From: Escherichia coli
GTDB taxonomy: Bacteria > Pseudomonadota > Gammaproteobacteria > Enterobacterales > Enterobacteriaceae
Assembly: GCF_030013595.1 (NCBI RefSeq)
Contig: NZ_CP122768.1
Reading direction: 5' to 3' (one strand)
Length of the DNA stretch: 64,000 nt
The notes under the pieces were generated by a model that was not told where the DNA came from, searched no databases, and was given only the letters and a program-made list of their open reading frames with translations. Positions 24,989 to 64,000 of the stretch are shown here, piece by piece (the stretch's first letter is position 1; every line of letters starts with the position of its first letter). The position numbers were made by a program, and so were the translations under genes.

Positions 24989-25064
<76 letters not shown>

Positions 25065-25099
25065 TTGGGTGGTCTGTGCTTTACAGCACTTTCAAATTT

Positions 25100-25175
<76 letters not shown>

Positions 25176-25332
25176 TTAATCTTCGTCTTTCGAACCGCTA
25201 CTGCCTTGGCTGCCTTCACTCACCTTAGTCACTTACTTTTGTAAGCTCCCAAGGATTCGTTCAGTTGCCGCCTTGTCGCAATTCGAAATACTGCGATTGG
25301 GTGGTCTGTGCTTTGCAGCACTTTTCAAATTT

Positions 25333-25408
<76 letters not shown>

Positions 25409-48860: not shown

Positions 48861-50297
48861 ATGTCAAACAACATTCGTATCGAAGAAGATCTGTTGGGTA
48901 CCAGGGAAGTTCCAGCTGATGCCTACTATGGTGTTCACACTCTGAGAGCGATTGAAAACTTCTATATCAGCAACAACAAAATCAGTGATATTCCTGAATT
49001 TGTTCGCGGTATGGTAATGGTTAAAAAAGCCGCAGCTATGGCAAACAAAGAGCTGCAAACCATTCCTAAAAGTGTAGCGAATGCCATCATTGCCGCATGT
49101 GATGAAGTCCTGAACAACGGAAAATGCATGGATCAGTTCCCGGTAGACGTCTACCAGGGCGGCGCAGGTACTTCCGTAAACATGAACACCAACGAAGTGC
49201 TGGCCAATATCGGTCTGGAACTGATGGGTCACCAGAAAGGTGAATATCAGTACCTGAACCCGAACGACCATGTTAACAAATGTCAGTCCACTAACGACGC
49301 CTACCCGACCGGTTTCCGTATCGCAGTTTACTCTTCCCTGATTAAGCTGGTAGATGCGATTAACCAACTGCGTGAAGGCTTTGAACGTAAAGCTGTCGAA
49401 TTCCAGGACATCCTGAAAATGGGTCGTACCCAGCTGCAGGACGCAGTACCGATGACCCTCGGTCAGGAATTCCGCGCTTTCAGCATCCTGCTGAAAGAAG
49501 AAGTGAAAAATATCCAACGTACCGCTGAACTGCTGCTGGAAGTTAACCTTGGCGCAACAGCAATCGGTACTGGTCTGAACACGCCGAAAGAGTACTCTCC
49601 GCTGGCAGTGAAAAAACTGGCTGAAGTCACTGGCTTCCCATGCGTACCGGCTGAAGACCTGATCGAAGCGACCTCTGACTGCGGCGCTTATGTTATGGTT
49701 CACGGCGCGTTGAAACGCCTGGCTGTGAAGATGTCCAAAATCTGTAACGACCTGCGCTTGCTCTCTTCTGGTCCACGTGCCGGCCTGAACGAGATCAACC
49801 TGCCGGAACTGCAGGCGGGCTCTTCCATCATGCCAGCTAAAGTAAACCCGGTTGTTCCGGAAGTGGTTAACCAGGTATGCTTCAAAGTCATCGGTAACGA
49901 CACCACTGTTACCATGGCAGCAGAAGCAGGTCAGCTGCAGTTGAACGTTATGGAGCCGGTCATTGGCCAGGCTATGTTCGAATCCGTTCACATTCTGACC
50001 AACGCTTGCTACAACCTGCTGGAAAAATGCATTAACGGCATCACTGCTAACAAAGAAGTGTGCGAAGGTTACGTTTACAACTCTATCGGTATCGTTACTT
50101 ACCTGAACCCGTTCATCGGTCACCACAACGGTGACATCGTGGGTAAAATCTGTGCCGAAACCGGTAAGAGTGTACGTGAAGTCGTTCTGGAACGCGGTCT
50201 GTTGACTGAAGCGGAACTTGACGATATTTTCTCCGTACAGAATCTGATGCACCCGGCTTACAAAGCAAAACGCTATACTGATGAAAGCGAACAGTAA
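48861..50297 (+). CDS. aspA: Aspartate ammonia-lyase AspA, 478 aa
   Basis: ORF 48816..50297 trimmed to ATG at 48861 ([30 protein letters not shown]...); fumarase/aspartase [10 protein letters not shown] signature. Confidence 0.97.
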
Positions 50298-50322
50298 TCG
50301 TACAGGGTAGTACAAATAGAGA

Positions 50323-50349
50323 AGGCACGTCAGATGACGTGCCTTTTTT
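50323..50349 (+). terminator. Rho-independent terminator after aspA
   Basis: aggcacgtc / gacgtgcct stem followed by TTTTT. Confidence 0.6.
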
Positions 50350-50414
50350 CTTGTGAGCAGTAACTTAAAAATAACAATCTAATATCAACTTGTTAAAAAA
50401 CAAGGAAGGCTAAT

Positions 50415-51716
50415 ATGCTAGTTGTAGAACTCATCATAGTTTTGCTGGCGATCTTCTTGGGCGCCAGATTGGGGGGAATAGGTATTGGTTTTGCAGGCGG
50501 ATTGGGGGTGCTGGTTCTTGCCGCTATTGGCGTTAAACCCGGTAACATCCCGTTCGATGTCATTTCCATTATCATGGCGGTTATCGCCGCTATTTCTGCC
50601 ATGCAGGTTGCTGGCGGTCTGGACTATCTGGTTCATCAGACAGAAAAGCTGCTGCGCCGTAACCCGAAATACATCACGATCCTCGCACCGATCGTGACCT
50701 ATTTCCTGACAATCTTTGCTGGTACTGGCAACATCTCTCTGGCGACACTGCCAGTTATCGCTGAAGTTGCGAAGGAACAAGGCGTTAAACCTTGCCGTCC
50801 GCTGTCTACTGCAGTGGTATCCGCGCAGATTGCGATCACCGCATCGCCAATCTCAGCGGCAGTGGTTTACATGTCTTCCGTAATGGAAGGTCATGGCATC
50901 AGCTACCTCCATCTGCTCTCCGTGGTCATCCCGTCCACCCTGCTGGCGGTTCTGGTGATGTCCTTCCTGGTCACTATGCTGTTCAACTCCAAACTCTCTG
51001 ACGATCCGATTTATCGCAAGCGTCTGGAAGAGGGCCTGGTTGAACTGCGCGGTGAAAAGCAGATTGAAATCAAATCCGGTGCAAAAACGTCCGTCTGGCT
51101 GTTCCTGCTGGGCGTAGTTGGCGTGGTTATCTATGCAATCATCAACAGCCCAAGCATGGGTCTGGTTGAAAAACCGCTGATGAACACCACCAACGCAATC
51201 CTGATCATTATGCTCAGCGTTGCAACTCTGACCACCGTTATCTGTAAAGTCGATACCGACAACATCCTCAACTCCAGCACCTTCAAAGCAGGTATGAGCG
51301 CCTGTATTTGTATCCTGGGTGTTGCGTGGCTGGGCGATACTTTCGTTTCCAACAACATCGACTGGATCAAAGATACCGCTGGTGAAGTGATTCAGGGTCA
51401 TCCGTGGCTGCTGGCCGTCATCTTCTTCTTTGCTTCTGCTCTGCTGTACTCTCAGGCTGCAACCGCAAAAGCACTGATGCCGATGGCTCTGGCACTGAAC
51501 GTTTCTCCGCTGACCGCTGTTGCTTCTTTCGCTGCGGTGTCAGGTCTGTTCATTCTGCCGACCTACCCGACGCTGGTTGCTGCGGTACAGATGGATGACA
51601 CGGGTACTACCCGTATCGGTAAATTCGTCTTCAACCATCCGTTCTTCATCCCGGGTACTCTGGGTGTTGCCCTGGCCGTTTGCTTCGGCTTCGTGCTGGG
51701 TAGCTTCATGCTGTAA
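50415..51716 (+). CDS. dcuA: Anaerobic C4-dicarboxylate antiporter DcuA, 433 aa
   Basis: Intact polytopic membrane ORF (MLVVELIIVLLAIFLGARLGGIGIGF...) downstream of aspA. Confidence 0.95.
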   Translation: MLVVELIIVLLAIFLGARLGGIGIGFAGGLGVLVLAAIGVKPGNIPFDVISIIMAVIAAISAMQVAGGLDYLVHQTEKLLRRNPKYITILAPIVTYFLTIFAGTGNISLATLPVIAEVAKEQGVKPCRPLSTAVVSAQIAITASPISAAVVYMSSVMEGHGISYLHLLSVVIPSTLLAVLVMSFLVTMLFNSKLSDDPIYRKRLEEGLVELRGEKQIEIKSGAKTSVWLFLLGVVGVVIYAIINSPSMGLVEKPLMNTTNAILIIMLSVATLTTVICKVDTDNILNSSTFKAGMSACICILGVAWLGDTFVSNNIDWIKDTAGEVIQGHPWLLAVIFFFASALLYSQAATAKALMPMALALNVSPLTAVASFAAVSGLFILPTYPTLVAAVQMDDTGTTRIGKFVFNHPFFIPGTLGVALAVCFGFVLGSFML

Positions 51717-51725
51717 TGATCAATC

Positions 51726-51752
51726 GCGGGGCGTTCACGCCCCGCTTTCTTT
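51726..51752 (+). terminator. Rho-independent terminator after dcuA
   Basis: gcggggcg / cgccccgc stem followed by a T-rich tract. Confidence 0.6.
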
Positions 51753-51831
51753 CCCGCCGACTAACATCCTTCCCCCGTCCGTTGTATAGTGACCTCTCTC
51801 TTGCGGTTCCATCTGTTCTTGCGAGGTGTTT

Positions 51832-52170
51832 ATGCTTGATGAAAAAAGTTCGAATACCGCGTCTGTCGTGGTGCTATGTACCGCACCGGATGAAGCGACA
51901 GCCCAGGATTTAGCCGCCAAAGTGCTGGCGGAAAAACTGGCGGCCTGCGCGACCTTGATCCCCGGCGCAACCTCTCTTTATTACTGGGAAGGTAAGCTGG
52001 AGCAAGAATACGAAGTGCAGATGATTTTAAAAACTACCGTATCTCTCCAGCAGGCACTGCTGGAATGCCTGAAGTCTCATCATCCATATCAAACCCCGGA
52101 ACTTCTGGTTTTACCTGTTACACACGGAGACACAGATTACCTCTCATGGCTCAACGCATCTTTACGCTGA
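51832..52170 (+). CDS. cutA: Divalent-cation tolerance protein CutA, 112 aa
   Basis: ORF 51826..52170 trimmed to ATG at 51832 ([25 protein letters not shown]...); 3' end overlaps dsbD start. Confidence 0.9.
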
Positions 52171-53843
52171 TCCTGCTACTTTGCAGCACTTCCGTTTTTG
52201 CCGGATTATTCGACGCGCCGGGACGTTCACAATTTGTCCCGGCGGATCAAGCCTTTGCTTTTGATTTTCAGCAAAACCAACATGACCTTAATCTGACCTG
52301 GCAGATCAAAGACGGTTACTACCTCTACCGTAAACAGATCCGCATTACGCCGGAACACGCGAAAATTGCCGACGTGCAGCTGCCGCAAGGCGTCTGGCAT
52401 GAAGATGAGTTTTACGGCAAAAGCGAGATTTACCGCGATCGGCTGACGCTTCCCGTAACCATCAACCAGGCGAGTGCGGGAGCGACGTTAACTGTCACCT
52501 ACCAGGGCTGTGCTGATGCCGGTTTCTGTTATCCGCCAGAAACCAAAACCGTTCCGTTAAGCGAAGTGGTCGCCAACAACGCAGCGTCACAGCCTGTGTC
52601 TGTTCCGCAGCAAGAGCAGCCCACCGCGCAATTGCCCTTTTCCGCGCTCTGGGCGTTGTTGATCGGTATTGGTATCGCCTTTACGCCATGCGTGTTGCCA
52701 ATGTACCCACTGATTTCTGGCATCGTGCTGGGCGGTAAACAGCGGCTTTCCACTGCCAGGGCATTGTTGCTGACCTTTATTTATGTGCAGGGGATGGCGC
52801 TGACTTACACGGCACTGGGTCTGGTGGTTGCCGCCGCAGGGTTACAGTTCCAGGCGGCGCTACAGCACCCATACGTGCTCATTGGCCTCGCTATCGTCTT
52901 TACCTTGCTGGCGATGTCAATGTTTGGCTTGTTTACTCTGCAACTCCCCTCTTCGCTGCAAACACGTCTCACGCTGATGAGCAATCGCCAACAGGGCGGC
53001 TCACCTGGCGGTGTGTTTGTTATGGGAGCGATTGCCGGACTGATCTGTTCACCATGCACCACCGCACCGCTTAGCGCGATTCTGCTGTATATCGCCCAAA
53101 GCGGGAACATGTTGCTGGGGGGCGGCACGCTTTATCTCTATGCGTTGGGCATGGGCCTGCCGCTGATGCTAATAACCGTCTTTGGTAACCGCCTGCTGCC
53201 GAAAAGCGGCCCGTGGATGGAACAAGTCAAAACCGCGTTTGGTTTTGTGATCCTCGCACTGCCGGTCTTCCTGCTGGAGCGAGTGATTGGTGATATATGG
53301 GGATTACGCTTGTGGTCGGCGCTTGGTGTCGCATTCTTTGGCTGGGCCTTTATCACCAGCCTACAGGCCAAACGCGGCTGGATGCGCGTGGTGCAAATAA
53401 TCCTGCTGGCAGCGGCATTGGTTAGCGTGCGCCCACTTCAGGATTGGGCATTTGGTGCGACGCATACCGCGCAAACTCAGACGCATCTCAACTTTACACA
53501 AATCAAAACGGTAGATGAGTTAAATCAGGCGCTCGTTGAAGCCAAAGGCAAACCAGTGATGTTAGATCTCTATGCCGACTGGTGCGTCGCCTGTAAAGAG
53601 TTTGAGAAATACACCTTCAGCGACCCGCAGGTGCAAAAAGCGTTAGCAGACACGGTCTTACTTCAGGCTAACGTCACTGCCAACGACGCCCAAGATGTGG
53701 CGCTGTTAAAGCATCTTAATGTCCTTGGCCTACCGACAATTCTCTTTTTTGACGGACAAGGCCAGGAGCATCCACAAGCACGCGTCACGGGCTTTATGGA
53801 TGCTGAAACCTTTAGCGCACATTTGCGCGATCGCCAACCGTGA
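52146..53843 (+). CDS. dsbD: Thiol:disulfide interchange protein DsbD (DipZ), 565 aa
   Basis: ORF 52065..53843 trimmed to ATG at 52146 ([23 protein letters not shown]...); C-terminal thioredoxin CVAC motif. Confidence 0.95.
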
Positions 53844-53879
53844 ACGACACTTGCAGTGGGAAAGACGGAGGAAAATAGC

Positions 53880-54455
53880 GTGCAACGTGAAGATGTACTG
53901 GGAGAAGCCCTGAAATTATTAGAATTACAAGGGATTGCCAACACCACGCTGGAGATGGTTGCTGAACGTGTGGATTATCCACTGGACGAGCTACGCCGCT
54001 TCTGGCCAGACAAAGAGGCAATCCTCTACGATGCGCTGCGTTATCTTAGCCAACAGATAGATGTCTGGCGTCGTCAGCTGATGCTGGACGAAACGCAAAC
54101 CGCCGAACAAAAGTTGCTGGCACGTTATCAGGCGTTATCGGAGTGCGTTAAAAACAACCGCTATCCGGGCTGTCTGTTTATCGCTGCCTGTACGTTTTAT
54201 CCCGATCCTGGCCACCCTATTCATCAACTGGCCGATCAGCAAAAAAGCGCGGCCTACGATTTCACCCACGAACTGTTAACCACACTGGAAGTTGACGATC
54301 CGGCGATGGTAGCAAAGCAGATGGAACTGGTGCTGGAAGGCTGTTTAAGCCGAATGCTGGTGAATCGTAGCCAGGCGGATGTCGACACCGCACATCGGCT
54401 GGCGGAAGATATCCTGCGCTTCGCCCGCTGCCGCCAGGGTGGTGCTTTGACCTGA
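53880..54455 (+). CDS. yjdC: TetR-family transcriptional regulator YjdC, 191 aa
   Basis: ORF 53856..54455; probable GTG start at 53880 ([31 protein letters not shown]...); N-terminal helix-turn-helix. Confidence 0.8.
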
Positions 54456-54561
54456 CAGAAACACAGAAAAGAAGCGATTTGCCGCAATCTTAAGCAGTTG
54501 AATCGCTTTTACTGAAATTAGGTTGACGAGATGTGCAGATTACGGTTTAATGCGCCCCGTT

Positions 54562-54637
54562 GCCCGGATAGCTCAGTCGGTAGAGCAGGGGATTGAAAAT
54601 CCCCGTGTCCTTGGTTCGATTCCGAGTCCGGGCACCA
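54562..54637 (+). tRNA. pheU: tRNA-Phe (GAA)
   Basis: gcccggatagctcagtcggtagagcaggggattgaaaatccccgtgtccttggttcgattccgagtccgggcacca, 76 nt, followed by hairpin ggacctcc/ggaggtcc plus TTTTT at 54653-54678. Confidence 0.95.
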
Positions 54638-54834
54638 AATTCATATCAACGGACCTCCACGGAGGTCCGTTTTTCGTTTCAGAACACCATGATTTAAGTG
54701 TTCTTCCTCCAAATCAATTCTACCGAACTCAACCAAATTCTCCCCACATCAACCTCATTGTGTGGGTATAATTGCGGGTATACCCCAGTTCGACAGAATT
54801 TGTACCCTCTTTAACGCATTCAGAAGGCTGAACT

Positions 54835-56097
54835 ATGGCACTGACTGACGCAAAAATCCGGGCTGCAAAGCCCACTGACAAGGCTTATAAACTCACTGAC
54901 GGGGCCGGCATGTTCCTGCTGGTTCATCCTAATGGTTCCCGTTACTGGCGTCTCCGTTATCGTATTCTGGGTAAGGAGAAGACTCTGGCACTTGGTGTGT
55001 ATCCGGAAGTTTCTCTCTCCGAAGCTCGTACAAAACGGGATGAGGCCCGAAAACTGATTTCAGAGGGGATTGACCCTTGCGAACAGAAAAGAGTTAAAAA
55101 AGTTGTCCCTGATTTACAGCTCTCTTTTGAACATATTGCACGACGCTGGCATGCCAGTAATAAACAATGGGCACAATCACACAGCGATAAAGTACTCAAA
55201 AGCCTCGAGACACACGTTTTCCCCTTTATCGGCAACCGGGATATCACAACACTCAATACCCCGGACCTGCTTATCCCTGTTCGTGCTGCAGAAGCAAAAC
55301 AAATTTATGAAATCGCCAGTCGTCTGCAGCAAAGAATATCTGCTGTAATGCGTTATGCCGTACAGTCTGGCATCATCAGATATAACCCGGCTCTGGATAT
55401 GGCTGGTGCATTGACCACGGTAAAACGCCAGCATCGCCCTGCTCTGGATCTTTCACGCCTGCCTGAACTTCTGTCGCGTATTGACGGTTATAAAGGCCAG
55501 CCTGTCACCCGACTGGCAGTTATGCTGAATTTACTGGTTTTTATTCGTTCCAGTGAACTCAGATATGCCCGCTGGTCTGAAATTGATATTGACAATGCCA
55601 TGTGGACTATTCCAGCCGAACGCGAACCTCTGCCAGGCGTAAAATTTTCATACCGGGGCTCCAAGATGCGAACACCACATCTTGTGCCACTCAGCCAACA
55701 GGCTGTAGCCATACTGGCAGAACTTCAGACATGGGCAGGTGAAAATGGTCTGATCTTTACGGGAGCACATGACCCACGTAAACCAATCAGTGAAAACACC
55801 GTAAATAAAGCCCTGAGGGTTATGGGGTATGACACAACCCAGGATGTCTGTGGTCATGGATTCCGGGCGATGGCATGTAGTGCATTAATAGAATCAGGTT
55901 TGTGGTCCCGCGATGCTGTGGAACGCCAGATGAGCCATCAGGAGCGTAATGGTGTACGTGCTGCGTATATCCATAAAGCCGAACATCTGGAAGAACGTCG
56001 ACTTATGCTACAGTGGTGGGCAGATTTTCTGGATGCGAACAGAGAACAATGTATCAGCCCGTTTGAATATGCAAAGATTAACAATCCATTAAAATAG
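54835..56097 (+). CDS. int: P4-type tyrosine integrase of a tRNA-Phe-associated island, 420 aa
   Basis: Intact ORF (MALTDAKIRAAKPTDKAYKLTDGAGMFLLVHPNGSRYWRLRYRILGKEKTLALGVYPEVSLSEARTKRDEARK...) with C-terminal catalytic region (HGFRAMA...RLMLQWW); sits directly 3' of a tRNA. Confidence 0.85.
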   Translation: MALTDAKIRAAKPTDKAYKLTDGAGMFLLVHPNGSRYWRLRYRILGKEKTLALGVYPEVSLSEARTKRDEARKLISEGIDPCEQKRVKKVVPDLQLSFEHIARRWHASNKQWAQSHSDKVLKSLETHVFPFIGNRDITTLNTPDLLIPVRAAEAKQIYEIASRLQQRISAVMRYAVQSGIIRYNPALDMAGALTTVKRQHRPALDLSRLPELLSRIDGYKGQPVTRLAVMLNLLVFIRSSELRYARWSEIDIDNAMWTIPAEREPLPGVKFSYRGSKMRTPHLVPLSQQAVAILAELQTWAGENGLIFTGAHDPRKPISENTVNKALRVMGYDTTQDVCGHGFRAMACSALIESGLWSRDAVERQMSHQERNGVRAAYIHKAEHLEERRLMLQWWADFLDANREQCISPFEYAKINNPLK

Positions 56098-56282
56098 TAA
56101 TCATCCCGGGCAGCTAGCCCGGGAATTATTTTCTGAATATTTTTCTTTGTGAGTAACTGGAAAAAGGATAGCGAAGTAAATTACTTTAATGAATTATTCC
56201 AGGGGCTCATTAAAGTTCTTTCGTAATACTTTGTAGTCAAACACGTTATGGCTGGCATCAAAAACCAGGTAATGACTCCAAC

Positions 56283-56780
56283 TTATTGATAGTGTTTTAT
56301 GTTCAGATAATGCCCGATGACCTTGTCATGCAGCTCCACCGATTTTGAGAACGACAGTGACTTCCGTCCCAGCCTTGCCAGATGTTGTCTCAGATTATGT
56401 CGCTCAATGCGCTGAGTGTAACGCTTGCTGATAACGTGCAGCTTTCCCTTCAGGCGTGATTCATACAGCGGCCAGCCATCCGTCATCTATACCACGACCT
56501 CAAAGGCCGACAGCAGGCTCAGAATACGCTCCAGTGTGGCCAGAGTGCGTTCACCGAAGACGTGCGCCACAACCGTCCTCCGTATCCTGTCATACGCGTA
56601 AAACAGCCAGCGCTGACGTGATTTAGCACCGACGTAGCCCCACTGTTCGTCCATTTCAGCGCAGACAATCACATCACTGCCCGGTTGTATGCGCGAGGTT
56701 ACCGACTGCGGCCTGAGTTTTTTAAGTGACGTAAAACCGTGTTGAGGCCAACGCCCATAATGCGTGCACTGGCGCGACAT
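56283..56780 (-). pseudogene. insB: IS1 insB disrupted by an in-frame TAG stop; also appears to carry a 6-bp in-frame deletion
   Basis: Two ORF-track fragments (56487..56780 and 56283..56486) are separated only by TAG at 56487-56489 where canonical InsB has Trp (..VVIWMTDGW..); fragment 2 lacks two residues relative to my recollection of InsB (HNLNLRQ vs HNLRQ here). Confidence 0.7.
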
Positions 56781-56974
56781 CCGACGCCATTCATGGCCAT
56801 ATCAATGATTTTCTGGTGCTTACCGGGCTGAGAGGCGGTGTAAGTGAACTGTAGTTGCCATGTTTTACGGCAATGAGAGCAGAGATAGCGCTGATGTCCG
56901 GCAGTGCTTTTGCCGTTACGCACCACGCCTTCAGTAGCGGAGCAGGAAGGACATCTGATGGAAATGGAAGCCAC
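56699..56974 (-). CDS. insA: IS1 InsA (transposition inhibitor / N-terminal part of InsAB'), 91 aa
   Basis: GTG start; [42 protein letters not shown]... with Zn-finger Cys pairs. Confidence 0.9.
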
Positions 56975-57201
56975 GCAAGCACCTTAAAATCACCATCATA
57001 CACTAAATCAGTAAGTTGGCAGCATTACCGAAATCCCCATCCTTTAGGGCAGTGAGAATGTCAATAATAGCAGACCACATCATGAGTCATTTTGACCGAC
57101 ACATGCAGAAGCAGAGGCTCCATCCCATTTTATACCTACCCTATAACACTTAGAAAAACAACATGTTAAAAATGTCTATTGGAAACAATTTTATTTCCAA
57201 T

Positions 57202-57220
57202 TGTAATGATAACCATTCTC
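57202..57220 (+). promoter_or_regulatory. Fur box upstream of fecI
   Basis: tgtaatgataaccattctc matches the 19-bp Fur consensus GATAATGATAATCATTATC at 15 of 19 positions; about 45 bp upstream of fecI. Confidence 0.6.
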
Positions 57221-57264
57221 ATATTAATATGGCTACGTGATAATTAACTTTTGATGCACTCCGC

Positions 57265-57782
57265 ATGTCTGACCGCGCCACTACCACAGCTTCCTTAACG
57301 TTCGAGTCGCTTTATGGCACACATCACGGCTGGTTGAAAAGCTGGCTGACGCGCAAACTCCAGTCTGCTTTTGATGCAGATGACATTGCCCAGGACACTT
57401 TTTTGCGGGTAATGGTCAGCGAAACGCTCTCGACGATCCGCGATCCTCGCTCCTTCCTGTGCACTATCGCCAAACGCGTGATGGTGGACCTGTTTCGCCG
57501 AAACGCGCTGGAAAAAGCGTATCTGGAGATGCTGGCGCTTATGCCGGAGGGGGGAGCGCCTTCACCTGAGGAACGCGAAAGCCAACTCGAGACCCTACAA
57601 CTCCTCGACAGCATGCTGGACGGGCTAAACGGCAAAACACGTGAAGCGTTTCTGCTTTCGCAACTGGATGGTCTGACATACAGCGAGATTGCGCACAAAC
57701 TCGGTGTTTCCATCAGCTCCGTGAAAAAATACGTGGCGAAAGCCGTCGAGCACTGCCTGCTGTTCCGTCTGGAGTATGGGTT

Positions 57783-57786
<4 letters not shown>
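57265..57786 (+). CDS. fecI: ECF sigma factor FecI, 173 aa
   Basis: Intact ORF ([28 protein letters not shown]...). Confidence 0.95.
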
Positions 57787-61147
<3,361 letters not shown>

Positions 61148-61156
61148 TGTGTTAAC

Positions 61157-61177
61157 GCCCGGCTTGCCGGGCTTTTA
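61157..61177 (+). terminator. Hairpin between fecA and fecB (attenuator-like)
   Basis: cccggc / gccggg stem followed by a T-rich tract, between fecA stop and fecB start. Confidence 0.5.
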
Positions 61178-61191
61178 GCTGGAATGTGATT

Positions 61192-62094
61192 ATGTTGGCA
61201 TTTATCCGTTTTCTTTTTGCAGGCCTGCTGCTGGTGATCAGCCACGCCTTTGCCGCCACGGTTCAGGACGAACACGGCACGTTTACACTCGAAAAAACGC
61301 CACAACGGATTGTGGTGCTGGAACTCTCGTTCGCCGATGCGCTGGCCGCCGTGGACGTCAGCCCGATCGGTATTGCCGACGATAACGATGCAAAACGCAT
61401 CCTGCCCGAAGTGCGTGCGCACCTGAAACCGTGGCAGTCCGTCGGAACGCGCGCGCAGCCGAGCCTGGAAGCCATTGCCGCTCTGAAACCAGACCTGATC
61501 ATTGCCGACAGCAGTCGCCATGCGGGGGTTTACATCGCCTTGCAGCAAATCGCGCCGGTACTGCTGCTTAAGTCCCGCAACGAAACCTACGCTGAAAATT
61601 TGCAATCTGCGGCTATCATCGGCGAAATGGTGGGTAAAAAGCGAGAGATGCAGGCACGTCTGGAACAACATAAAGAGAGGATGGCGCAGTGGGCCAGCCA
61701 GCTTCCCAAAGGGACACGCGTGGCCTTTGGCACATCACGCGAACAGCAATTCAACCTGCATACTCAGGAGACCTGGACCGGCAGCGTGCTGGCCTCTCTG
61801 GGGCTGAACGTTCCCGCTGCGATGGCGGGTGCGTCCATGCCGTCCATCGGCCTGGAGCAACTGCTGGCGGTCAATCCTGCCTGGCTGCTGGTTGCCCACT
61901 ATCGCGAAGAGAGCATTGTTAAACGCTGGCAACAAGATCCGCTCTGGCAGATGTTAACCGCCGCGCAGAAGCAGCAGGTTGCTTCGGTCGACAGTAACAC
62001 CTGGGCGCGGATGCGCGGTATTTTTGCTGCAGAGCGTATTGCCGCTGACACGGTAAAAATCTTCCACCATCAGCCGCTTACCGTTGTGAAATGA
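61192..62094 (+). CDS. fecB: Periplasmic ferric-citrate binding protein FecB, 300 aa
   Basis: ORF 61186..62094 trimmed to ATG at 61192 (MLAFIRFLFAGLLLVISHAFAATVQDE...). Confidence 0.95.
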   Translation: MLAFIRFLFAGLLLVISHAFAATVQDEHGTFTLEKTPQRIVVLELSFADALAAVDVSPIGIADDNDAKRILPEVRAHLKPWQSVGTRAQPSLEAIAALKPDLIIADSSRHAGVYIALQQIAPVLLLKSRNETYAENLQSAAIIGEMVGKKREMQARLEQHKERMAQWASQLPKGTRVAFGTSREQQFNLHTQETWTGSVLASLGLNVPAAMAGASMPSIGLEQLLAVNPAWLLVAHYREESIVKRWQQDPLWQMLTAAQKQQVASVDSNTWARMRGIFAAERIAADTVKIFHHQPLTVVK

Positions 62095-63089
62095 CCGCGA
62101 TAAAACACCCGGTGCTGCTGTGGGGGCTTCCCGTTGCAGCACTTATTATTATTTTCTGGCTGAGTCTGTTTTGCTACTCGGCCATTCCTGTTTCCGGAGC
62201 AGATGCAACCCGCGCCCTGCTGCCTGGACACACGCCAACGCTACCAGAAGCGCTGGTGCAAAACCTTCGTTTGCCACGAAGCCTCGTCGCCGTTCTGATC
62301 GGCGCAAGCCTGGCGCTCGCGGGCACGCTGCTGCAAACCCTGACCCACAACCCAATGGCCTCTCCTTCACTGCTCGGCATTAACAGCGGCGCGGCGCTGG
62401 CTATGGCGCTTACCAGCGCGCTGAGTCCGACGCCGATTGCAGGCTATTCTCTGTCGTTCATCGCGGCATGCGGGGGCGGCGTGAGCTGGCTGCTGGTCAT
62501 GACCGCAGGAGGCGGATTTCGTCATACCCATGACAGAAACAAACTGATCCTCGCGGGTATCGCGCTGTCGGCCTTTTGTATGGGCCTTACCCGCATCACC
62601 CTGCTGCTGGCCGAAGATCATGCTTACGGCATCTTTTACTGGCTGGCAGGCGGAGTGTCCCACGCCCGCTGGCAGGATGTCTGGCAGCTCTTGCCGGTGG
62701 TGGTCACTGCAGTCCCTGTCGTGTTGCTGCTGGCGAATCAACTGAACCTGCTCAACCTCAGCGACAGCACCGCCCATACGCTGGGAGTGAACCTGACGAG
62801 GCTACGTTTGGTCATCAATATGTTAGTGCTGCTTCTGGTTGGTGCGTGCGTCAGCGTGGCAGGTCCGGTGGCATTTATCGGTCTGCTGGTGCCACATCTG
62901 GCGCGCTTCTGGGCAGGCTTCGATCAGCGCAACGTACTGCCAGTGAGCATGCTGCTGGGGGCCACGCTGATGCTGCTGGCAGATGTACTCGCACGCGCGC
63001 TGGCCTTCCCCGGAGATCTGCCCGCAGGCGCAGTGCTGGCGCTGATTGGCAGCCCTTGCTTTGTCTGGCTTGTGAGGAGGCGAGGATGA
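62091..63089 (+). CDS. fecC: Ferric-citrate ABC transporter permease FecC, 332 aa
   Basis: Intact ORF; ATGA overlap with fecB stop. Confidence 0.95.
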   Translation: MTAIKHPVLLWGLPVAALIIIFWLSLFCYSAIPVSGADATRALLPGHTPTLPEALVQNLRLPRSLVAVLIGASLALAGTLLQTLTHNPMASPSLLGINSGAALAMALTSALSPTPIAGYSLSFIAACGGGVSWLLVMTAGGGFRHTHDRNKLILAGIALSAFCMGLTRITLLLAEDHAYGIFYWLAGGVSHARWQDVWQLLPVVVTAVPVVLLLANQLNLLNLSDSTAHTLGVNLTRLRLVINMLVLLLVGACVSVAGPVAFIGLLVPHLARFWAGFDQRNVLPVSMLLGATLMLLADVLARALAFPGDLPAGAVLALIGSPCFVWLVRRRG

Positions 63090-64000
63090 AAATTGCGCTG
63101 GTTATTTTCATCACCCTTGCCCTGGCGGGCTGTGCGCTGTTATCACTCCATATGGGAGTGATCCCCGTGCCGTGGCGCGCGCTGCTGACCGACTGGCAGG
63201 CCGGACGCGAGCATTATTATGTATTGATGGAGTACCGACTGCCGCGCTTGCTGCTGGCACTGTTTGTCGGTGCAGCCCTCGCCGTGGCGGGTGTGCTGAT
63301 ACAGGGGATTGTGCGCAACCCTCTGGCATCACCGGATATTCTCGGCGTTAACCATGCCGCCAGCCTGGTCTCTGTGGGGGCTCTACTTCTTATGCCGTCA
63401 CTGCCCGTGATGGTGCTGCCGCTGCTGGCCTTTGCGGGCGGCATGGCGGGGTTGATATTGCTGAAGATGCTGGCAAAGACCCACCAGCCGATGAAGCTGG
63501 CGCTCACCGGCGTGGCGCTTTCTGCATGCTGGGCCAGCCTGACGGATTATCTGATGCTCTCGCGCCCGCAGGATGTGAACAACGCCCTGCTGTGGCTGAC
63601 CGGCAGCTTATGGGGCCGTGACTGGAGCTTTGTGAAGATTGCCATCCCGCTGATGATTTTATTTCTGCCGCTGAGCCTGAGTTTTTGCCACGATCTCGAC
63701 CTCCTTGCACTCGGCGATGCGCGCGCCACCACGCTCGGTGTGTCGGTGCCCCATACCCGATTCTGGGCTTTGTTACTAGCTGTCGCCATGACATCTACCG
63801 GCGTGGCCGCCTGCGGCCCGATTAGCTTTATTGGTCTCGTGGTGCCGCATATGATGCGTAGCATCACCGGTGGACGTCACCGCAGACTGCTGCCTGTTTC
63901 GGCCCTGACAGGTGCGTTGCTGTTGGTGGTTGCCGATCTGCTGGCGAGAATTATTTATCCCCCACTGGAGCTCCCGGTTGGCGTGCTGACCGCCATTATC
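63086..64000 (+). CDS. fecD: Ferric-citrate ABC transporter permease FecD, partial (runs off window end)
   Basis: ATG at 63086 overlapping fecC stop; translates MKIALVIFITLALAGCALLSLHMGVIPVPW...; no stop before position 64000, so absent from the ORF track. Confidence 0.9.
   Translation, partial: MKIALVIFITLALAGCALLSLHMGVIPVPWRALLTDWQAGREHYYVLMEYRLPRLLLALFVGAALAVAGVLIQGIVRNPLASPDILGVNHAASLVSVGALLLMPSLPVMVLPLLAFAGGMAGLILLKMLAKTHQPMKLALTGVALSACWASLTDYLMLSRPQDVNNALLWLTGSLWGRDWSFVKIAIPLMILFLPLSLSFCHDLDLLALGDARATTLGVSVPHTRFWALLLAVAMTSTGVAACGPISFIGLVVPHMMRSITGGRHRRLLPVSALTGALLLVVADLLARIIYPPLELPVGVLTAII

Follow-up and report, generated by a model that had tools for sequence, protein, structure and literature searches.

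A fec-linked IS1F without a target duplication as the probable site of a rearrangement beside a tRNA-Phe integrase in Escherichia coli

The fec operon of Shigella flexneri is said, in work attributed to Luck et al. 2001, to be carried on the SRL pathogenicity island, a tRNA-linked, integrase-bearing island, amid IS elements. Among the GI-pheV islands whose integrase is of the type intP4.2, including those of H10407 and ED1a, the fec cluster was described in a 2024 study as the only core cargo (PMC11537424); the term 'IS1' has 0 occurrences in the main text of that study, and the junction that is the subject of the present work is not discussed there. The IS1F element of K-12, for its part, departs from the IS1 consensus at 73 positions and is all but incapable of transposition (PMC12428005). 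With regard to insertion sequences in general, the lack of a target-site duplication (TSD) is an accepted signature of either an adjacent deletion or recombination between IS copies (PMC11708052).

The locus described here was analysed within one continuous stretch of 64 kb of E. coli DNA (hereafter, the window), in which an IS1 copy stands between the integrase of a tRNA-Phe island and the fec genes for ferric-citrate uptake. An earlier note on this DNA had proposed that an IS1-mediated deletion or recombination put fec beside the integrase, and had suggested that both flanks be aligned to those of related genomes. This comparison supports the proposal: the left flank is that of the integrase island, as found in strain 23CRST025, and the right flank is that of fec, as found in approximately 2,750 genomes. 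In the IS-free relatives that were compared, the two flanks are not contiguous with each other; the left one continues as ept, a phosphoethanolamine-transferase gene, and the right one as a remnant of tnpB. It is thus very probable that the junction is a secondary one, with an original fec side and a derived integrase side. As such, it belongs to a known kind of ordinary IS scar, carried by an element that is itself known (the IS1F of K-12), and reveals no new mechanism; what is modestly new is limited to the recognition of an unoccupied site in IncF plasmids and of the tnpB remnant as the target first hit, together with a catalogue of outer junctions.

The IS1F element and its ends

The element is a 762-bp IS1 of the IS1F type, located at positions 56268..57029 on the minus strand, with its IRR end at 56268 and its IRL end at 57029; its transposase genes being encoded on that strand, IRR is on the left and IRL on the right. 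Its terminal inverted repeats occupy positions 56268-56290 (plus strand, GGTAATGACTCCAACTTATTGAT) and 57007-57029 (minus strand, GGTAATGCTGCCAACTTACTGAT), and both fit the degenerate IS1 repeat pattern with 0 mismatches, where 0 matches are expected by chance. A scan of the 64-kb window with this pattern yielded no other match, leaving a single IS1. The features by which members of the IS1 family are recognized are present, namely a length of approximately 768 bp with imperfect terminal inverted repeats of about 23 bp, and insA and insB' reading frames that are joined by an A6C -1 frameshift motif. The 762-bp sequence corresponds to the 768-bp IS1F of K-12 minus one tandem copy of TCAGAT, this 6-bp deletion being situated at 56389/56390.

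Within the element, the insA open reading frame is intact, as is the A6C frameshift motif (AAAAAAC, 56717-56723, minus strand); the insB' frame can be followed as well, but an internal TAG at 56487-56489 breaks it. Since insB' carries this stop codon, the window copy can make no transposase and is a transposase pseudogene, and the RefSeq annotation of the identical sequence reads, in the same sense, 'IS1 family transposase; programmed frameshift; internal stop', with the status of pseudogene. Intact IS1F alleles, which lack the stop codon, exist in CE10 and on the IncF plasmid pCFS3292-2. An alignment of the window element with IS1F and IS1A reveals 11 differing columns with respect to K-12 IS1F (98.6% identity) and 76 with respect to IS1A, and IS1A alone deviates in 67 columns. 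By this comparison the element is of the IS1F isoform, and not IS1A, along its whole length, and no IS1F/IS1A mosaic that would mark a crossover was detected in the alignment over the full window element. The differences that are specific to the window (column 19, the 6-bp deletion and column 264) all fall within the IRR-proximal third, a clustering that hints, though only weakly, at recombination or gene conversion.

The earlier observation that the 9 bp outside the two IS1 ends differ is borne out, both in sequence and in position. On the left lies CAAAAACCA (56259..56267), which is native ept sequence and not a target duplication, and on the right lies GAAATCCCC (57030-57038), the presumed original target of IS1F. 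The two share the same base at 5/9 positions, and random pairs of 9-mers drawn from the window reach at least 5/9 matches with P = 0.053 (5.3%); the agreement is at chance level. In addition, the 30-nt flanks of IS1 have no k-mer of 5 or more in common, also after the ends are shifted by +/-6. The 8-9 bp direct duplication of a simple insertion is thus absent around the window IS1F, a fact that bears on the history of this copy and not on its membership of the IS1 family. The possibility, also raised in the earlier note, that re-set IS1 ends would reveal a matching duplication is not borne out: the ends are not mis-set, because the breaks in homology to IS-free relatives coincide with both of them, at 56267/56268 on the left (in the comparison with intact ept) and exactly at 57030 on the right (in the comparison with IS1-free fec plasmids). 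Neither is the junction an artefact of assembly, since at least 81 complete genomes share it.

Provenance of the two flanks

To the left of the element, the attachment site of the island is the tRNA-Phe gene pheU (54562..54637, plus strand; identified by ARAGORN and from the annotation of matching genomes), which is preceded by dsbD and then by yjdC/dicD. ARAGORN also placed three tandem tRNA-Gly(GCC) genes elsewhere in the window (24989-25408, minus strand), a trio that resembles the glyV-X-Y cluster, which one would expect as core sequence in this part of the chromosome. The P4-type tyrosine integrase of the tRNA-Phe island occupies positions 54835..56097 (plus strand; annotation transferred from locus L001, which is 100% identical over the stretch), and beyond it a stump of 74 nt (56194..56267, minus strand) represents the 3' terminus of ept, a yjgX-like gene, as indicated by a partial-gene annotation and by alignment to the intact gene. 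In 23CRST025, the same integrase is found at pheV and is followed by an intact, 1,674-bp ept, which tracks the window up to position 56267 and then reads CGGATTTCCCC where the window has IS1; an intact ept next to the same integrase is found in ETEC4075 as well. Since tRNA-Phe, the integrase and full-length ept co-occur in 23CRST025, the left flank is native to the integrase island, and IS1 truncates ept. The remainder of the gene (its 5' 1.6 kb) is absent from the window, and each of the genomes that carry the window junction has one ept match, the stump only, with no further piece. The deleted side of ept (CGGATTTCCCC) and the tnpB side (CAGAAATCCCC) are alike at 8/11 positions; this likeness was rejected as a site of recombination because the joint sits at the IS1 terminus, outside the similarity.

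To the right, IS1F is followed by a remnant of the IS200/IS605 family (57030..57065, plus strand), which comprises the last 5 tnpB codons with the stop (GAA ATC CCC ATC CTT TAG) and the right-end hairpin. The annotated small ORF ykiE (57061..57128, minus strand) has its start adjoining the edge of this remnant, and a 1-nt deletion at alignment column 952 causes a frameshift in it in the window lineage. The genes fecI, fecR, fecA, fecB, fecC and fecD extend over positions 57265..64000 (plus strand; annotation of the identical L001), with fecD being cut by the end of the window. K-12, O145:H28, O55:H7, CE10, M21816 and one IncF plasmid all share the 235 bp from IS1 to fecI and the junction ...GCATTACC|GAAATCCCC, and ~2,750 of the 5,426 complete E. 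coli genomes, including that of K-12, have the right flank from its very first base onward. It is the identity of the IS1F|GAAATCCCC-fecI junction throughout these genomes that marks the right flank as native to the fec module.

The state of this region without IS1 is preserved on five IncF plasmids (e.g., NZ_OU342920.1), which carry the region upstream of fecI at 98% and lack the element. Across the insertion point, the IS1-free plasmids read ...GTATTGCAGTCTGACAGCA|GAAATCCCCATCCTTTAGGG (in L064, ...GACAGCA|GAAATCCCC...), and the DNA to the left of this empty site (L064 2590-3047) is a decayed tnpB that is recognized by the NCBIfam model IS200_TnpB at 1e-15, up to profile position 359/360; for Pfam PF07282 the E value is 7e-6, just above its cut-off. 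The body of this decayed tnpB is kept only on the five IncF fec plasmids. Comparison with the intact TnpB of the K. pneumoniae plasmid pC39-334kb (L072 448-1600) yields 60% identity through the last residues (AAGIPVL* vs TAEIPIL*), and the alignment of the DNA with the Klebsiella tnpB runs on through the right-end hairpin of the element. In the IncF plasmids, both the tnpB frame and this hairpin span the IS1 insertion point. The plasmids thus represent the unoccupied site, IS1F having gone in 15 nt ahead of the stop codon of tnpB, with GAAATCCCC as the presumed target and expected duplication of that original insertion. The empty site also serves to date the insertion of IS1F relative to the spread of fec.

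An exact 22-mer of the right flank gave 0 matches in the GTDB species representatives, that of E. coli evidently being one without this fec lineage, and no IS1 was found beside fecI in the FecI-based loci of 56 species. The nearest of these loci are those of Kluyvera and Citrobacter, at ~90% amino-acid identity; these were rejected as the empty site, their homology upstream of fecI fading 57-170 nt before the IS1 site. In Salmonella enterica subsp. diarizonae (L040 1961-2179), an integrase segment that is 77% identical to that of the window is located ~800 bp upstream of a fecI homologue, which suggests an independent association of integrase and fec.

Outer neighbours and distribution of the island

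At least four different neighbours are found on the IRR side of the element, all beside the same fec junction, none with GAAATCCCC and none with a duplication. In the window type, where the neighbour is the ept stump at pheU and pheV, the left flank ends in ...CATCAAAAACCA (at least 81 genomes); in the K-12 type it ends in ...AAACATGGTC, on the yjhU side (359 genomes); in the O55:H7 type, which is also that of the IncF plasmid pCFS3292-2, it ends in ...GTTCGGGAGGA (1,672 genomes); and in the CE10 type, directly after the leuX integrase, it ends in ...TTAACTGATG. The IRR end of the fec-linked IS1F has been a site of repeated rearrangement. At leuX, moreover, the IS1F-fec-IS3/IS911 block is found in both orientations relative to the integrase, the order in CE10 being int, IS1F, fecI to fecE, IS3 (L067), and that in DEC5A (O55:H7) being int, IS3, fecE to fecI, IS1F (L066/L071; cf. 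K-12, L002/L069). Dating of the rearrangements by means of the shared internal stop was considered and rejected, the distribution of the stop allele being independent of junction type: the IS1F of DEC5A has the stop, and the plasmid with the same junction is without it. Given this spread, gene conversion or recurrence is possible and the stop is unusable for dating.

In this type of island, the far edge of the fec module consists of a plain break 556 bp after fecE (L007 12526, corresponding to ~65366 in window numbering and thus outside the window). The break is followed by CTGGTCTGT, and not by CAAAAACCA or ept, and the module here borders on fragments of a hemagglutinin/ShlB two-partner secretion locus; in K-12 and CE10, a small ORF and IS911 come next at this point.

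A search for the missing halves of the duplication, as had been proposed earlier, found none. A chimeric query of tnpB+GAAATCCCC+IS1F-IRR gave 0 matches in the 5,426 E. coli genomes and 0 in the plasmid collection, so that the original left junction is lost everywhere sampled, and the combination IRL+CAAAAACCA+ept-rest, searched on both strands, gave 0/5,426. With neither half-junction in any genome searched, and no remainder of ept, the DNA in question was lost and not translocated. Were the junction GCAGCATTACC+CAAAAACCACGGATTTCC to exist somewhere, it would indicate an ept-resident IS1 and favour the models of recombination, inversion or cointegrate formation; CTGACAGCAGAAATCCCC+GGTAATGACTCC would stand for the original simple insertion.

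The order integrase, ept stump, IS1F, fec is found in at least 81 genomes and at both tRNA-Phe sites. The same breakpoint lies at pheU in the window, in O141:H4 P13-6 and in O103:H2 strains, and at pheV in ETEC1731, O145:H28 RM13514 and H10407; carriers of the window type include ETEC H10407 and STEC strains of O103, O121 and O145. That the breakpoint is identical at pheU and pheV points to a single origin, after which the island would have moved between the two tRNA-Phe genes, themselves identical. Among the 5,426 complete E. coli genomes, the best match to positions 50000-58029 of the window is that of O141:H4 P13-6 (99.4% over 8 kb), and the island part of the window is 100% identical to ETEC1731. 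The junction of integrase, ept stump, IS1F and fec could thus serve as a handy lineage marker for this type of island.

Formation of the joint and its known counterparts

Taken together, the comparisons show that IS1F was first inserted upstream of fecI, and that its IRL-side junction has been inherited unchanged with fec on islands and plasmids. The element was joined to fec long before the rearrangement, only its outer, IRR end being the rearrangement joint, where the terminal nucleotide of IRR is fused to the last 74 nt of ept. The window locus lacks the 5' 1.6 kb of ept, the body of tnpB and the copy of the original duplication that would have stood on the left. The account that is preferred here, albeit tentatively, is that the joint arose by intramolecular IS1 transposition, as a transposase-made adjacent deletion. 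The IRR end of IS1F would have reacted with a site within the ept gene of its own molecule, with loss of the DNA in between; by an alternative route, an inversion would have taken place, with subsequent decay of the distal product. Since the transposase of the window IS1F is dead, and the IS1F of K-12 is itself essentially immobile (PMC12428005), this requires either a then-intact IS1F allele or another IS1 acting in trans as the source of the enzyme. The finished island would then have spread between pheU and pheV, and among strains. What an adjacent deletion is expected to leave is what is seen, namely one old junction together with another end that abuts truncated DNA at the IS terminus, and absence of the deleted DNA without a reciprocal junction; recombination between two IS1 copies would lead to such a result just as well. 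No precursor island with both a full ept and IS1F-fec in cis was found.

A close rival, which ranks close behind the adjacent deletion and is itself a possibility to be taken seriously, is RecA-dependent recombination between an IS1F inserted in ept (and flanked by CAAAAACCA) and the fec-linked IS1F. Such a crossover could have taken place in cis between copies in direct orientation, or with an incoming fec plasmid or island, with one flank coming from each copy. No active IS1F transposase is needed at the crossover, which fits the internal stop, and recombination between IS copies is a recognised cause of missing TSDs (PMC11708052); the window-specific differences, furthermore, cluster in the IRR-proximal 264 bp. 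Related islands do contain extra IS1F copies. One of these, in the same orientation and without a TSD, is present in the intact-ept pheV island of 23CRST025 (L074 17045-17812), at a distance of ~15 kb from the integrase; it has csc sucrose genes on one side and a RelB/type I R-M block on the other, is flanked by CACTGCCCA and TGACCAAGC, and carries the same internal stop. However, the intermediate, an IS1 in ept at this very site, is absent from the 5,426 genomes and would itself still need a transposition into ept, and the element is IS1F-like throughout, without a crossover mosaic. On sequence alone, recombination between IS1F copies and adjacent deletion are not separable.

Fusion of replicons is an unlikely source of the joint. 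It would involve a plasmid with IS1F-fec that made an IS1 cointegrate in the ept of the island, giving the order ept stump, IS1F, plasmid with fec, IS1F, rest of ept, with the distal copy of IS1F, the backbone of the plasmid and what remained of ept deleted later. Such a fusion predicts a transposition joint on the left and a donor junction on the right, as seen, and the IS1F-fec module does occur on conjugative IncF plasmids, with an intact IS1F and neighbouring IS1 copies; the plain break after fecE, beside gene fragments, is also compatible with later decay. Nevertheless, several additional deletions must be assumed, and no remnant of a plasmid backbone, second IS1 or ept remainder is present in the 49-kb island. 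The absence of a second IS1 from the window and from 49 kb of island also weighs against insertion of IS1F and fec into ept as one transposon, be it composite or one-ended in the manner of ISEcp1. This is highly improbable even though it would agree with an IS end that is constant on the cargo side and has many different outer neighbours, in islands as well as in plasmids: the right edge is followed by CTGGTCTGT and not by CAAAAACCA or ept, the ept remainder is missing from these genomes, and neither the second bounding IS1 nor the TSD around the unit by which an IS1 composite transposon is recognized was found. The chance that a simple IS1 insertion has had its 9-bp duplication decayed by point mutation, or its ends mis-called, is negligible. 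The two 9-mers do agree at 5/9, but only at the chance level given above, and both breaks in homology fall at the IS1 ends; the flanks, moreover, are of separate origin, one being ept and the other the tnpB remnant, and each runs on into other sequence in IS-free relatives, which rules out a degraded TSD. A wider proposition, that IS1F is the working handle with which fec repeatedly changes place among conjugative IncF plasmids and the tRNA-linked islands of leuX, pheU and pheV, is also doubtful. If it were true, it would operate through IS1 cointegrates or intramolecular events, the outer junctions, at least four in number, would be scars of independent mobilisation, and fec would be the cargo of an IS1-driven unit and not a passive island gene.

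The value of the locus lies mainly in annotation and in island history, fec travelling with one fixed copy of IS1F. Its closest counterpart is the IS1F of K-12 (insA-7/insB-7, beside fecI in KpLE2 at leuX), in which both the element (98.6% identical) and its insertion point are the same, as are the IRL|GAAATCCCC-ykiE-fecI junction and the internal stop, and which likewise has no target duplication. The two differ in the outer neighbour, which is the yjhU side in K-12 and the ept stump beside the tRNA-Phe integrase in the window; the window copy, in addition, is without 6 bp, and fec faces the opposite way with respect to the integrase. The IS-associated deletions of the E. coli long-term evolution experiment (PMC11708052) also display a single IS with intact ends, one old and one new junction, a gene truncated by the new junction, no TSD, and loss of the intervening DNA; unlike these, the event in the window is ancient and fixed, has been reconstructed by comparative genomics, and involves an IS that is now a pseudogene. 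Finally, the GI-pheV islands of the intP4.2 type share with the window island the association of integrase and fec at a tRNA-Phe gene, and H10407 carries the identical junction at 99.8%, but these islands are located at pheV, whereas that of the window is located at pheU.
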